Shown here: positions 3,630 through 7,323 of the stretch, in pieces | Numbering within the stretch: position 1 is the stretch's first letter | Layout: each line of letters starts with the position of its first letter | NCBI RefSeq assembly: GCF_001564455.1 | Contig: NZ_CP011391.1 | Location: forward strand, 1,350,001 to 1,382,000 | DNA length: 32,000 nt | Source: Faecalibaculum rodentium | GTDB taxonomy: Bacteria > Bacillota_I > Bacilli_A > Erysipelotrichales > Erysipelotrichaceae | Direction of reading: 5' to 3' | Notes under the pieces: generated by a model | Told to the model about the DNA's origin: nothing | Database searches by the model: none | The model's input: only the letters and a program-made list of their open reading frames with translations | Made by a program: the position numbers and the translations under genes

Positions 3630-4410
3630 ACAGTCCTGCCTTTCGTTCCAGATCCTCGCGCAGTCTGTGGCGCAGATCTTCGCTGCCAGCAAGGGAGATC
3701 ACCGGCATGAAATAGCCAATGGAGAGCAGGCTCATGGCCTGCAGGTTTGACAGGCCGCGGCTTTCCAGGTAGTACATCTGGTCGGCATCGGGCTGTCCGA
3801 CAGTCATGGCATGGCTGGCCTTGACTTCGTTTTCGTCTATGTACAGGATCGGCAGCACACGGGTTTTGTGGTCGGCATCCAGTGTCAGGACCCGGGTTTC
3901 CTGGTGACTTTCGCTGCCGCGGGCTCCCTTGACGATCTTCCCGGCTGCGACCATGTCATAGTCCGCCGCCCGGTGCAGCACCGCAAAGTTGTGCATCTTG
4001 CCGAAGGTGTGGTCTGTTTCACTCACCACCTGCAGGTCGTTTTTCTTCCTGGCACCCTCGCCGACCAGTTCCCCGGTGTACAGATCTGCACTGGCACCGG
4101 GCTCCTTGAGGCGGATTTCGCCCCGGAATTCCAGGAAACCTTTCTCCAGGTCCAGCAGGCCGATTTTCAGGTCCGCCTGGCTGTGCACGTCCGCTGACAG
4201 CGTGAGGGTCAGGTCATCGGATGATTCCCGCAGGATGAGGACCCTCAGTTCACTGTCCCTGTCGCAGCGCAGTGACAGATCCAGTGTCCGGACCTGGTCT
4301 CCGGCTTTCAGCAGCAGGGCGCCGTGACTTCCGCTTTCGGCCATCAGCTCCAGCCTGCCGTTTTCGGCCTGCAGGGTGCTGTCGTGACGCCCGGTCAGTC
4401 TGCGCTCCAT
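3613..4410 (-). CDS. sufD: SufD-like Fe-S assembly protein (short form, 265 aa)
   Basis: It sits between sufC and sufS. The C-terminal QMYYLESRGL...A..LL..GF motif is shared with the SufB/SufD family, and the body has a beta-helix-like repetitive character. It is shorter than the roughly 430-aa Bacillus SufD. Confidence 0.8.
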   Translation of the reverse strand: MERRLTGRHDSTLQAENGRLELMAESGSHGALLLKAGDQVRTLDLSLRCDRDSELRVLILRESSDDLTLTLSADVHSQADLKIGLLDLEKGFLEFRGEIRLKEPGASADLYTGELVGEGARKKNDLQVVSETDHTFGKMHNFAVLHRAADYDMVAAGKIVKGARGSESHQETRVLTLDADHKTRVLPILYIDENEVKASHAMTVGQPDADQMYYLESRGLSNLQAMSLLSIGYFMPVISLAGSEDLRHRLREDLERKAGLYGHQG

Positions 4411-4411
4411 G

Positions 4412-5227
4412 TCACTGGTCCTTTCTGGCGCCGCAGGTACCCAGGCTGATGGGACGGGACTTCTCTTCCCGCGCTGCCTTCACGCCGGTTTCCTTTTCGA
4501 TCCAGTCGTAGCCTTCGCCGTCGACTTTTTCAATCAGTTCCGGTCCACCGGACATCACGATGCGGCCATCCACCAGGATGTGGGCACGTGTCGGGTGCAG
4601 GTAGTCCAGGAACCTGGCATAGTGGCTGACCACGATCATTCCCAGACCGGTCTCTTTCTGGCATTCCCCGATGGCGTCTGCCACAATGCGCAGGGCATCC
4701 ACGTCCAGGCCGGAATCAATTTCATCCAGCATGGCAAAGCGGGGTTTCAGCAGCATCATCTGGACGATCTCGTTGCGCTTTTTCTCGCCCCCGGAGAACC
4801 CTTCATTCAGGAACCGGTGGGCCAGGTCGGGTTTCATTTCCAGTTCGGAAATGGCACGGTCCATTTCCTTGATGAACTTGAACAGGGAGATCGGTGTCTC
4901 GCGGCGCGCGTTGATGGCCGTGCGCAGGAAATCCGAGTTGGTGACCCCGGGAACCTCCGAGGGATACTGCATCCCCAGGAACAGTCCGGCGCGGCTGCGT
5001 TCATCCACCGGCATGGCCAGGACATCCTGACCGTCGAGCGTAACTGTACCGCGGGTCACTTTGTATTTCGGGTTCCCCATGATGGCTGCCAGCAGTGTGG
5101 ACTTGCCGTTGCCGTTGGGGCCCATAAGGGCGTGGCGTTCACCGGATCTGACGGTCAGGTCAACGCCTTTCAATATCTCCTGATCTTCCACGCTGACGTG
5201 GAGGTCTCTGATTTTCAATTCGGGCAT
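4412..5227 (-). CDS. sufC: SufC Fe-S assembly ATPase (ABC-type)
   Basis: MPELKIRDLHVSVEDQEILKGVDL... with Walker A GPNGNGKST, ABC signature FSGGEKKR and Walker B MLDEIDSGLD. AAGAGG lies upstream of ATG 5227. It is the first gene of the operon. Confidence 0.95.
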   Translation of the reverse strand: MPELKIRDLHVSVEDQEILKGVDLTVRSGERHALMGPNGNGKSTLLAAIMGNPKYKVTRGTVTLDGQDVLAMPVDERSRAGLFLGMQYPSEVPGVTNSDFLRTAINARRETPISLFKFIKEMDRAISELEMKPDLAHRFLNEGFSGGEKKRNEIVQMMLLKPRFAMLDEIDSGLDVDALRIVADAIGECQKETGLGMIVVSHYARFLDYLHPTRAHILVDGRIVMSGGPELIEKVDGEGYDWIEKETGVKAAREEKSRPISLGTCGARKDQ

Positions 5228-5541
5228 ATACTACCTCTTTTCACTACTGCTAATCATAGCAAAGCAGTATGTGAATCTCAAACCGCCGCCACTGCGATAC
5301 ATTGCTTTCCAAATCCGGGCTCTGTATAATTTAACAGTTATTCTCAGAGGTGGATTTCACTATTATTCGTTCTTAATCAAACCGTTATTTGCGTTAAATC
5401 AATGTTTTTCGCTGCATTATTTGAGTTTCAGTCATAATCATTACCGAACGTCTTTCCAAAAAATGCTCCAAAAAGTGCTCCAATTTTGTATCTGCCCACT
5501 CTGACGTTAATTTGATGCAGATGTTCGGATGATGAGGCATT

Positions 5542-5567
5542 AAAAAACGCCCCGGGTTTCCCCGGGG
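5542..5567 (-). terminator. Rho-independent terminator T1, ending the 2-gene cassette and the prophage late arm
   Basis: The minus-sense sequence right after the TAA at 5577..5575 is GACAAAA-CCCCGGG-GAAA-CCCGGGG-CG-TTTTTT. This gives a 7-bp GC stem (5550-5556 / 5561-5567), a 4-nt loop and a T6 run. Confidence 0.8.
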
Positions 5568-5574
5568 TTTTGTC

Positions 5575-6153
5575 TTATGGTCTGTCAAAATCCTCGTTAA
5601 GTTCTCTGGGAGCAAAATAGCCCTTGATACAATTCGGATTTTTAACTGCTATCTGCGTATGGGTACGTTCCATAAGAAGAGAACCCTCTGCGATTGGATC
5701 CCCTTCAAAGAAGAGACCTCTAACGAAATCAAACGGTGGCTTATCGTTTAGATCTTGAATTTCGTGGACAGCAGCTATAATGGCACAATCCAAATTTCTT
5801 AACAGTAAATCTCTACCATGGTTTTCTGGTAACGGAATTTGATGGTCAGCGCAGGCTTGCACTAAATACTCATACCCTTGCCTCAGGATGGGCGTCGCAA
5901 ATTGGTCTGTAAGATTTAAACAGTATCCCAAATCTAACGCTGCTCCGAGAACTCGGCCATTTTCTTTGTACCGTGCCTCCGCCCATTGTTTTGCTCGTTC
6001 TAGATTTCCTTCCCAGAAGTAAATACCAGGCCCGAGCCAGTCATAAGCGTTTGTGCTCTCTTTGAGGTCTTCTTTTCCAGATAACACTGCTTCGTAAACA
6101 TCTTTATGGCATCCGTGAAAGCCGAACACCACATTTGGAAGTTTTGAATACAT
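5575..6153 (-). CDS. Uncharacterised 192-aa protein with a diphtheria-toxin/PARP-like H-Y-[EDQ] motif arrangement (candidate ADP-ribosyltransferase fold); putative toxin/effector of a 2-gene module
   Basis: The ATG at 6153..6151 directly abuts the upstream TAA (TAAATG). Motifs are FGF-H13-GC, then 32 aa later YDWLGPGI-Y45-FWE, then T-Q167-IAV near the C-terminus. There is no signal peptide or TM segment. Sampled lines give about 38-40% GC. The functional call rests on motifs only. Confidence 0.45.
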   Translation of the reverse strand: MYSKLPNVVFGFHGCHKDVYEAVLSGKEDLKESTNAYDWLGPGIYFWEGNLERAKQWAEARYKENGRVLGAALDLGYCLNLTDQFATPILRQGYEYLVQACADHQIPLPENHGRDLLLRNLDCAIIAAVHEIQDLNDKPPFDFVRGLFFEGDPIAEGSLLMERTHTQIAVKNPNCIKGYFAPRELNEDFDRP

Positions 6154-6342
6154 TTACCAGTTAATACCCTGTGTAACAATCTGTTTTTTCGGTTTCCCGT
6201 TTTCTGTTATTCCCGATCTCTCTAAAAAACTAGCAGCCTGCTTTTTAGCCGCCACTGGGTTGCTTTTAGATAACTGCTTAAAAGCTTCTACCGTCTTACG
6301 CGCAGCATCGACATCTTTTTTAGTTACTCCATAAGCTGTCAT
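6154..6342 (-). CDS. Small (62 aa) lysine-rich helical protein, putative partner/antidote of the downstream gene
   Basis: The ORF 6154..6414 is trimmed to ATG 6342..6340 (MTAYGVTKKDVDAARKTVEAFKQL...GKPKKQIVTQGINW), 6 nt after GAAGGAGGA (6357..6349). It has 12 K/R against 5 D/E residues. Its stop is fused to the next start codon. Confidence 0.6.
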   Translation of the reverse strand: MTAYGVTKKDVDAARKTVEAFKQLSKSNPVAAKKQAASFLERSGITENGKPKKQIVTQGINW

Positions 6343-6379
6343 ACAAGTTCCTCCTTCACATTCTCCTTTGTTCATACAT

Positions 6380-6437
6380 ATTATTACATAACGAACGAAG
6401 ACGCGAGGTAACAATGCATTATTGGGGAATTTGTCAA
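6380..6437 (-). promoter_or_regulatory. Candidate promoter(s) for the 2-gene cassette
   Basis: On the minus sense there is a TTGACA (6437..6432) with only a poor -10 (TTGTTA) 17 nt downstream. There is also an extended -10-like TGTAATAAT (6388..6380) about 25 nt upstream of the SD. Neither is compelling alone. Confidence 0.3.
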
Positions 6438-6451
6438 CTTTTTTAATCGTT

Positions 6452-6477
6452 AAAAAAAGCCCCCGGGTTTCCCGGGG
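6452..6477 (-). terminator. Rho-independent terminator T2, directly after the endolysin gene
   Basis: The minus-sense sequence after the TAA at 6486..6484 is AAACAA-CCCCGGG-AAA-CCCGGGG-GC-TTTTTTT. This gives a 7-bp GC stem (6461-6467 / 6471-6477) and a T7 run. It is nearly identical to T1. Confidence 0.8.
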
Positions 6478-6483
6478 TTGTTT

Positions 6484-7323
6484 TTATTTAAATGTCGCCC
6501 AGGGGTCCTTACCCTGTGTCTCGCTGCCGCTTACTGCCACGCAGCCATAGCCGCCGGATGCTCTGATATAGCGCACCCACCGGTGGCCCTTGTAGGCACA
6601 TTTTGCGATGTACTTGACGCTCTGTCCCTTGTTGTATGTCACACCGGGGATGACTTCACCATCCGGATTATCCTTGTGGATTCGGATGGAGTCTTTGGTA
6701 AAGGTTGCGGTACCATTCTCAGCTACCCATTTGATAGATCCAGTGGAACCGCCAGTCTTCACGTCGGCTGCTTTTTTCCAGCTCATACCATTACCGTTGC
6801 GGATGGTCACACCATCAACCACGCAGGCTTTGTCTGCGCTGATGGAGTTGTGCAGGCAGTAAATTCCGTACCGGTTCGGGCCATCGTAAGGCCTGGAATA
6901 GCGTCCTTTGGCAACTTCAAAATGACAGTGGTTCCCTGTCGCCCGGCCAGCGGTGCCCTCATCGCCAAACTCTTCCCACTGAGCAAAAACATGACCTTTA
7001 TTGGCCAGTGCCAGGATGTCTCCGATGTAGTTATCGTGGATAAACATAAATGTCGCGTAATCAATGGTGCCATCTGCGAACATCACTTTATTCACAGACT
7101 CAAAGAAAATCGCGTTGCCGTTGGCTGCCGAGTCATGCCATTTATAGCGCATGGAACAAGGGGCAAAAGTCGGCTCAATGCCTGTGTCCTTGCCCGCAAT
7201 GTCCAGCGCATTAACGCCCTGGTGCGAATACTGCCCATTGTTTCCCTGGGTGATGGTCATCGTCTTCATGGGAAATCGGATGAGTTCGTAAGTCTTTCCG
7301 TCTTTGGTTTTTGTGAGTGTCAT
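6484..7323 (-). CDS. Endolysin: M23/LAS-type zinc peptidase-like catalytic domain + C-terminal SH3b-like cell-wall binding domain
   Basis: 279 aa. It has SHQGVNALDIAG and GRATGNHCHFEV (an HxH motif as in M23 TGPHLHFE). The C-terminal ...GQSVKYIAKCAYKGHRWVRYIRASGGYGCVAV... resembles SH3b. It is the last gene of the lysis cassette, has AAAGGAGAA upstream, and shares an ATGA overlap with the previous gene. Confidence 0.8.
   Translation of the reverse strand: MTLTKTKDGKTYELIRFPMKTMTITQGNNGQYSHQGVNALDIAGKDTGIEPTFAPCSMRYKWHDSAANGNAIFFESVNKVMFADGTIDYATFMFIHDNYIGDILALANKGHVFAQWEEFGDEGTAGRATGNHCHFEVAKGRYSRPYDGPNRYGIYCLHNSISADKACVVDGVTIRNGNGMSWKKAADVKTGGSTGSIKWVAENGTATFTKDSIRIHKDNPDGEVIPGVTYNKGQSVKYIAKCAYKGHRWVRYIRASGGYGCVAVSGSETQGKDPWATFK

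Follow-up and report, generated by a model that had tools for sequence, protein, structure and literature searches.

A two-gene cassette at the end of a Faecalibaculum rodentium prophage

The window analysed here is a 32,000-nucleotide (nt) stretch of the Faecalibaculum rodentium genome (assembly GCF_001564455.1, contig NZ_CP011391.1, positions 1,350,001-1,382,000), and coordinates are relative to it unless a public contig is named. A siphovirus-type late operon occupies its minus strand between about 29.1 and 6.5 kb, and beyond the endolysin gene lies a cassette of two open reading frames (ORFs), the first encoding a basic protein of 62 amino acids (aa) and the second a 192-aa protein. The latter is predicted to be an ADP-ribosyltransferase (ART) distantly related to CmdT, the toxin of an antiphage toxin–antitoxin–chaperone system, and the pair is probably a toxin–antidote or abortive-infection cassette carried by the prophage as a moron. 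The stop codon TAA of the 62-aa ORF (6156-6154) immediately abuts the ATG of the 192-aa ORF (6153-6151), giving TAAATG. An earlier note, made from the letters of this stretch alone, had described a self-contained minus-strand unit of two genes at the prophage end, with a Shine-Dalgarno sequence, the TAAATG junction and a terminator on either side, and all of these elements were recovered as described (Table 1). Its description of the small protein as lysine-rich also held, with 12 K/R against 5 D/E and an isoelectric point (pI) of 10.08, as did the low GC content that it ascribed to the unit. GC is 38-46% over 5250-6450, whereas the suf genes reach 57-63% and the phage late genes about 47-60%. 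The three motifs that it singled out in the 192-aa protein, around H13, Y45 and Q167, are present in the order and with the spacing it gave.

Table 1. Coordinates of the cassette and of the features that surround it in the window
Feature	Position	Strand	Remarks
62-aa basic partner protein gene	6342..6154	-	ORF, ATG start
192-aa CmdT-like ART gene	6153..5575	-	ORF, ATG start
Shine-Dalgarno sequence GAAGGAGGA	6357-6349	-	6 nt 5' of the ATG of the 62-aa gene; read from the sequence
Endolysin intrinsic terminator-like hairpin CCCCGGGAAACCCGGGG + T-run	6477..6461	-	Upstream boundary of the cassette
Cassette intrinsic terminator-like hairpin CCCCGGGGAAACCCGGGG + T-run	Hairpin 5567..5550, element 5567..5543	-	After the 192-aa ORF
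Candidate weak sigma-70-like promoter of the cassette, TTAAAA-17-AATAAT	6446..6418	-	9/12; consensus match only
His13 codon (GFHGC; FGF-H13-GC)	6117-6115	-	Predicted NAD-binding His of the H-Y-[E/D/Q] triad
Tyr45 codon (GxGIYFWE; YDWLGPGI-Y45-FWE)	6021-6019	-	32 residues beyond H13
Gln167 codon (T-Q167-IAV; T-H-x-Q-I-A/C-V strand)	5655-5653	-	Proposed third triad residue
Late-operon genes: large terminase, portal, protease, major head, major tail, tape measure, Dit, tail fibre, holin, endolysin	~29.1-6.5 kb	-	
Prophage–host junction (attachment site, att, boundary)	5322/5323	.	Homology to contig L178 ends at 5323; phage DNA from 5323 upward, host suf promoter region below

A large unannotated family with a conserved triad

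In the databases, the 192-aa protein has an identical entry, WP_067557223.1, annotated as a 'hypothetical protein' of F. rodentium. It has no NCBIfam match, and among phage protein families it is matched by PHROG 14664 (unknown function). The earlier note had suggested that a domain of unknown function (DUF) family from Firmicutes might have a similar N-terminus; no counterpart was found among the DUF families of Pfam or NCBIfam, PHROG 14664 being the only match. Nevertheless, the family is large. Database searching returned 1344 matches at E<=0.001 among 90%-identity clusters, and 3474 representatives of 50%-identity clusters matched at E<=1e-3, 433 of them at E<=1e-30. Members occur in at least 597 species genomes, spread over Bacillota, Bacteroidota, Planctomycetota, Spirochaetota, Pseudomonadota and others, as well as in at least 85 viral contigs, and they are common in gut commensals, for example Segatella copri and Lachnospiraceae. 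The family is nonetheless wholly 'hypothetical' in the databases and absent from both Pfam and NCBIfam, the annotation available being the weak PADLOC matches described below.

Across 128 diverse homologues, H13 and Y45 are invariant and Q167 is at least 90% conserved. None of the three varies (100% conservation) in 69 genome-derived pairs of the two genes, where the residue at position 57 (+12 from Y45) is always W, F or Y. H13 is likewise invariant among 36 close relatives. Natural variants at the Q167 position (P0232, P0260 and P0236) are rare and carry Glu (H-S-E, H-I-E; P0232 and P0260) or His, which shows that Gln and Glu interchange at the proposed catalytic site within the family.

Throughout the family, the protein is a stand-alone domain of ~190-205 aa without an N-terminal trafficking or secretion region. 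This architecture bears on the idea of a secreted or contact-dependent polymorphic toxin accompanied by its immunity protein. Polymorphic toxins commonly use ART warheads paired with small immunity genes, and a small gene is indeed present here. However, the family-wide lack of a trafficking region, the position of the small gene upstream rather than downstream, and the finding that no secretion-system genes recur nearby make this explanation highly improbable.

Distant homology to CmdT

The closest known system proved to be CmdTAC, that is, the PD-T4-9 antiphage toxin–antitoxin–chaperone system (Vassallo et al. 2022; Vassallo, Doering & Laub 2024, PMC11618068; Mets et al. 2024 preprint). CmdT, the A component of PD-T4-9, is an ART toxin that modifies mRNA by ADP-ribosylating the N6 of adenine in GA dinucleotides; its triad was termed HY-[E,D,Q] by the authors, and a Y41A mutation abolishes both defence and toxicity (PMC11618068). 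CmdT is insoluble and non-toxic without CmdA, the toxic combination being CmdT together with CmdA (PMC11618068; PMC11445053). The CmdT sequence used for comparison was recovered from the primers in the supplement of that paper through a search of E. coli genomes. At the corresponding E. coli locus (L090), CmdT (192 aa), CmdA (77 aa) and the SecB-like CmdC lie inside a P2-like prophage.

Several comparisons connect the window protein with this toxin. The PADLOC models for PD-T4-9_A match it weakly (E 1.5e-6 and 2.8e-5, residues 8-83) and match 123 of the 128 family members (best 1e-9), while BLASTP aligns the window protein with CmdT over residues 8-61 at E 9e-7. The family profile recovers the single CmdT sequence with 95.4% probability, and hhalign aligns the family with a 58-sequence CmdT alignment at 97.5% probability (E 7e-12, 130 columns, ~17% identity). 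This alignment pairs GFH13GC with GFH11NC and GIY45FW with GYY43FW, where His11 and Tyr43 correspond to His9 and Tyr41 in the numbering of the paper. Within the CmdT family, H11, Y43, Q166 and W55 are invariant, and the motif around Q166, R-Q-Q-L-C-V, resembles H-x-Q-I-C/A-V around Q167. The two proteins are thus alike in length (192 aa), in their common GFH-x-C and G-x-Y-F-W motifs with the catalytic Tyr aligned, in a Gln within a closely similar C-terminal strand motif, and in having a small, tightly linked partner. Their phyletic ranges differ, that of the new family being far broader, whereas the named CmdT homologues retrieved were mostly from Gammaproteobacteria. Because the relationship is distant, with only ~17% identity at the profile level, these alignments point to a distant CmdT homologue that belongs to a sister family rather than to an orthologue.

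Evidence for an ADP-ribosyltransferase fold

A weak match to the Pfam PARP family (PF00644) was obtained for 27 of the 36 close relatives, and these matches take in the His and Tyr motifs (profile positions 44-149). Six relatives score 24.3-28.2 bits against a curated gathering threshold of 26.7 bits, which one of the six reaches; by the same threshold, the window protein is not a member of PF00644. At the sequence level, the PDB yielded no meaningful match to the protein or to the family profile (the matches were ornithine aminotransferase, E 0.06, and an exotoxin, E 1.8), and no deposited CmdT structure was found there.

Structural searching was more productive. A first AlphaFold2 model, built from the 36 close homologues, had a predicted local distance difference test (pLDDT) score of 74 and yielded Foldseek noise only (template modelling score, TM, ~0.15); it was replaced by the model used here, which was built from the 128 diverse sequences and reached a pLDDT of 95.5 and a predicted TM score (pTM) of 0.89. 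When this model was compared with the PDB using Foldseek, the top matches were almost all catalytic domains of PARP1/2/3 (probability up to 0.98), and the other matches included an ART anti-CRISPR entry (6kyf, AcrIF11; TMt 0.45), the NADase toxin NatT and, weakly, Tpt1. Structure scores against the PDB were moderate (TMq ~0.4). Among the predicted viral structures of BFVD, the best match had an E value of 3.6e-6, and the best named matches were ART-PolyVal proteins, from E 3.1e-4. In the model, H13 lies on the strand 8-16 and Q167 on the strand 165-170.

Since the PARP profile matches, the CmdT homology and the fold matches agree independently, sequence and modelled structure together place the 192-aa protein in the ART fold of the H-Y-[E/D/Q] (diphtheria toxin/PARP) clade. 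Its likeness to PARP and to the H-Y-E ARTs of the diphtheria-toxin group lies in the best PDB structural matches, in the borderline Pfam matches of its relatives and in the order and spacing of the proposed H...Y...[E/Q] residues. It differs from them in that the window protein itself has no PF00644 match, TM scores are ~0.4, Gln replaces Glu, and the 192-aa protein is a minimal stand-alone domain without a helical regulatory domain.

The earlier note had proposed a Gln at the catalytic position. Given that Q166 is invariant in CmdT, Gln at the proposed third position is the family norm and not an oddity. This bears on another explanation, namely that the protein is an inactive ART-fold pseudo-enzyme or a non-toxic housekeeping enzyme of RNA modification or repair. 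Such a role would agree with Gln instead of Glu at the third triad position, with the lack of a Pfam match for the window protein and with the appearance of Tpt1, an RNA-repair ART fold, among the weak structural matches. However, Gln is also invariant in the matching motif of CmdT, an active enzyme (PMC11618068), and the strict conservation of H13, Y45, Q167 and several other positions across phyla argues for retained catalysis. Neither the patchy, mobile and phage-linked distribution nor the dedicated partner fits a housekeeping function. We therefore consider both variants of this explanation distinctly improbable.

The 62-aa partner and the two-gene unit

The ART gene is preceded by a 58-64-aa gene in four independent contexts. 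When an iterative profile built from the 62-aa protein of the window was run over the 5117 ORFs of 80 genome loci, a homologue was found immediately upstream on the same strand in 74 of the 80 loci; 74 of the 79 matches were so placed, the rest being extra copies. An adjacent partner was also detectable for 56 of 75 ART genes in viral contigs. The junctions between the genes are mostly between -8 and +4 nt, and a Bacteroidota subgroup overlaps by 25 nt. Distance matrices of partner and ART are correlated (Mantel r = 0.66, a value reached in 0/2000 permutations), and by these comparisons the two genes pair and co-diverge across phyla. All the refutation tests that could be computed for the earlier note came out in its favour: it had proposed an ART-like fold, and the profile and structure searches returned that fold instead of an unrelated one; the three residues that it nominated are conserved; and the two genes do occur together in other genomes.

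Partner proteins are 47-85 aa long and usually basic (median pI 9.55), and L40, G44 and G49 are nearly invariant. Database searching with the partner retrieved only small 'hypothetical' proteins and no fusions. A resemblance to GA-module albumin-binding helices (E 0.004) was judged to be a helix-turn resemblance only, and comparison with CmdA gave no similarity (hhalign probability 0.1%). Literature searches for CmdT, NetFlax and ART antitoxins returned papers on CmdTAC only, with no description of this two-gene family. The partner is thus an undescribed small-protein family, for which we propose a role as an antidote or a folding partner.

Some loci carry additional copies. In Segatella copri AF10-17 (L035), two complete modules of partner and ART lie ~3 kb apart (159-925 and 3844-4609), and a third, orphan partner gene (4626-4769) directly follows the second ART gene. 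Extra partner copies are likewise present in L025, L029 and L037.

To search for a third component, the largest flanking ORFs, 100 upstream and 106 downstream, were screened against Pfam. Among the ~100 neighbours per side, 91 and 87 different Pfam families were found, none of them in more than three loci. SecB, macrodomains and NADAR were absent from the 25 most frequent Pfam families listed for the neighbours of both sides, and no conserved chaperone, hydrolase or regulator was seen on either side. The conserved unit comprises two genes, and it is found in housekeeping, mobile-element and phage contexts alike. As far as gene order and distribution can tell, it has the traits of a type II toxin–antitoxin (TA) system: small, co-directional and coupled genes, a conserved pair and a patchy, mobile distribution.

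These observations separate the cassette from the characterised systems. Like CmdTAC, it is carried in the variable region of a prophage. However, the F. rodentium partner lies upstream and is unrelated to CmdA, which is encoded downstream and has a chaperone-addiction tail, and whereas the SecB-like CmdC is the third gene at L090, the window contains no SecB-like chaperone. Judged by its genes, with an unrelated upstream partner and the chaperone absent, the system is not CmdTAC. DarT-DarG comprises an ART toxin acting on nucleic acid in a two-gene TA and defence module (PMC12945103). The earlier note had cited DarT-DarG and ParT-ParS as ART toxins with dedicated antidotes; the nearest known system is CmdTAC instead. 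The likeness to DarT-DarG lies in an ART toxin of the same broad clade and in the two-gene organisation; the differences are that the window protein has no Pfam (DUF4433) or PADLOC match to DarT and that the 62-aa partner lacks a recognisable domain and is neither a macrodomain nor a NADAR hydrolase, as the earlier note had anticipated when it set the partner apart from macrodomains and other known antidotes. With neither a DarT signature nor a hydrolase antidote, the system is not DarTG. At 62 aa the partner is too small for an enzyme, and therefore any neutralisation would have to proceed by binding and not by reversal of the modification.

The same evidence informs the question of whether the small protein is instead an obligate folding or activating partner with a function like that of CmdA, so that the pair would be a toxic warhead controlled by an unlinked factor, for example a host protease or a housekeeping chaperone. 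The behaviour of CmdT, which is toxic together with CmdA and not alone, is a precedent for this arrangement, and the conserved tight translational coupling and the co-divergence of the two proteins are compatible with it. However, the partner shows no relationship to CmdA, the ~100 neighbours on each side include no conserved third gene, and a pair that is toxic at all times would be difficult to keep. The small-gene-first order is also the usual one of antitoxin and toxin; in type II TA systems, the antitoxin gene usually precedes the toxin gene. On balance, an obligate folding or activating partner under unlinked control is an unlikely account of the pair.

Prophage context and moron status

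The host genes sufC, sufD, sufS and sufB are situated below 5.23 kb, with sufC as the next gene after the ART gene, and the phage is integrated just 5' of the sufCDSB operon. The sufC start codon is 96 bp downstream of the junction and the ART stop codon ~250 bp away on its other side, and given this position, the cassette is the last coding unit of the prophage. Public contigs with an identical endolysin fall into two classes. The cassette is present in L172, L175 and L178, with the gene order endolysin, 62-aa gene, 192-aa gene. What comes next is sufC, as in the window, or, in L178, the attP region and an integrase; the order endolysin, cassette, attP and integrase in L178 is the phage-form arrangement. 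The cassette is absent from L171, L173 and L174, in which homology (96%) ends at the endolysin stop codon and a different integrase arm follows. Because it is present or absent beside an identical endolysin, has its own Shine-Dalgarno sequence and terminator, deviates in GC content and lies next to att, the cassette is a genuine moron in the lysis–att variable slot of a temperate siphovirus, which bears out the proposal of the earlier note that it is a moron placed next to att after the lysis genes. An unrelated prophage (L007, with a GH25 endolysin) has a homologous partner and ART pair at the same post-endolysin position (3803-5395).

In L007, a HicA/HicB toxin–antitoxin pair comes next on the opposite strand, forming with the homologous pair a cluster of small TA-type cargo at the prophage end. 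In L171 and L174, a different filler of ~750 bp (4340-5086) lies between the endolysin and the different integrase, which includes two short predicted ORFs, of 60 and 98 aa, and, right after the endolysin stop codon, tandem CCACTAGACA repeats; this filler may be alternative cargo in the same slot.

A phage-borne ART may also serve offence. AcrIF11 ADP-ribosylates the Csy complex, and Alt, ModA and ModB of phage T4 modify host proteins. The 192-aa protein might accordingly be a counter-defence enzyme that modifies a host protein or a protein of a rival defence, with the small protein as its specificity or regulatory subunit. The Foldseek matches to 6kyf (TMt 0.45) and to phage ART-PolyVal proteins of virion type point in this direction, these being small phage-borne ART-fold neighbours of the model, as do the occurrence of the family in viral contigs and the phage-borne copy of the window. 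However, AcrIF11 and ART-PolyVal proteins act on host or defence proteins without a dedicated partner, and no sequence-level similarity to them was detected, the closest sequence relative being the defence toxin CmdT and not an anti-CRISPR protein. In addition, the 80 genome loci have heterogeneous and largely non-phage neighbours, the tightly coupled upstream partner, orphan partners and multi-copy loci resemble toxin–antitoxin behaviour, and the cassette lies behind the late operon, transcriptionally insulated, and not among early genes. The probability of an offensive role is correspondingly low.

Proposed mechanism and significance

The explanation that we favour, and hold to be probable, is that of a two-gene, chaperone-independent, CmdT-like toxin–antidote or abortive-infection cassette carried as a prophage moron. 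The ART would use NAD+ to ADP-ribosylate a macromolecule, by analogy with CmdT most likely a nucleic acid, the leading candidate being single-stranded RNA or mRNA, and the modification would lead to an arrest of translation or growth. The 62-aa protein would be made first from the shared mRNA, with TAAATG coupling, and would bind the ART and hold it inactive; it may also aid ART folding, as CmdA does for CmdT. In a lysogen, with the late genes silent, the cassette would be expressed from signals of its own. If the small partner were lost or titrated, through infection by another phage or loss of the element, the toxin would be freed, providing the lysogen with abortive infection or exclusion, or the prophage with an addiction function.

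Several findings weigh against this explanation. For the toxin, the window protein has no Pfam match at E<=1, the sequence similarity to CmdT is limited to the N-terminal two thirds, and the equivalence of Q167 and CmdT Q166 is drawn from motif resemblance and secondary structure, as the hhalign alignment stopped at residue 146. For the partner, no Pfam family, no solved (PDB) relative and no recognisable antitoxin fold or DNA-binding domain was found, and its basic rather than acidic character is atypical for an inhibitor of a nucleic-acid-binding toxin. Given that CmdT alone is non-toxic and needs CmdA to fold, the small protein might just as well activate or chaperone the ART as act as its antidote. 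The candidate cassette promoter is weak by consensus (9/12), and a perfect TTGACA at 6437-6432 on the minus strand has no good -10 partner. Finally, the ART gene shows no preference for the ends of viral contigs (14 of 67 in the terminal 10% on either side, where ~13 are expected), and lysis genes are not enriched among the upstream neighbours of ART loci; the post-lysis position is therefore one context among many.

A broader reading is more tentative. The family may constitute a widespread chaperone-independent ART defence system, in which the basic 47-85-aa partner would represent a novel type of ART inhibitor or sensor and the target of the enzyme may differ from the GA sites of CmdT. In this joint reading, which we advance with some doubt, the partner would neither reverse the modification, as DarG does, nor depend on SecB, as CmdA does. 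What is new is a large, unannotated, cross-phylum sister family with a minimal control partner; a CmdT-type mechanism is already known, and the system is not categorically new in that respect.

As yet, no characterised ART other than CmdT is known to modify mRNA bases, and CmdT itself is known only from a mostly enterobacterial three-gene system of toxin, antitoxin and chaperone. Here, the same catalytic core is predicted to be controlled by an unrelated protein of 50-60 residues without a chaperone. If active, the family would widen the known reach of nucleic-acid ADP-ribosylation in phage–bacterium conflict and, with two proteins only, offer a minimal system in which to study the restraint of such toxins. 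It would also provide a prophage-borne exclusion or addiction function in a mouse-gut commensal of microbiome research.

Further observations at the locus

The endolysin and cassette terminators form a near-identical direct repeat of ~35 nt on the minus strand (6450-6482 and 5540-5572), with the motif A-A-CCCCGGG(G)AAACCCGGGG-T-run. The window has this motif at those two sites only, with 0 expected by chance, and the duplicate terminators that bracket the cassette may be a trace of its acquisition. Between the cassette terminator and the att junction, the AT-rich phage arm carries tandem TTGGAGCA(C/T)TTTTT repeats (~5455-5485, minus strand), which may be arm-type binding sites of an integrase or excisionase. 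In L178, a group II intron encoding a reverse transcriptase (RVT_1 + GIIM) is inserted at 4115-6000, equivalent to window ~5540-5542, in a phage contig that is otherwise 99.7% identical. The intron directly follows the T-run of the cassette terminator; bacterial class C introns habitually insert after terminators. On the host side of the junction, a good sigma-70-like site, TTGAGA-17-TATGAT with an upstream TG, lies at 5281..5253.

The endolysin (6484-7323, minus strand) has no Pfam catalytic-domain match, and Pfam gave a sub-threshold C-terminal SH3_5 match only. Its best PHROG is 11037 (unknown function), with a weak match to a metallo-endopeptidase PHROG over residues 110-141; databases may cover its catalytic domain poorly. 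A 158-aa ORF (7320-7796, minus strand), situated between holin and endolysin, shares 4 nt with the start of the endolysin gene. Its only matches are PHROGs 4257 and 4105 (unknown function), and it is kept in all related contigs.

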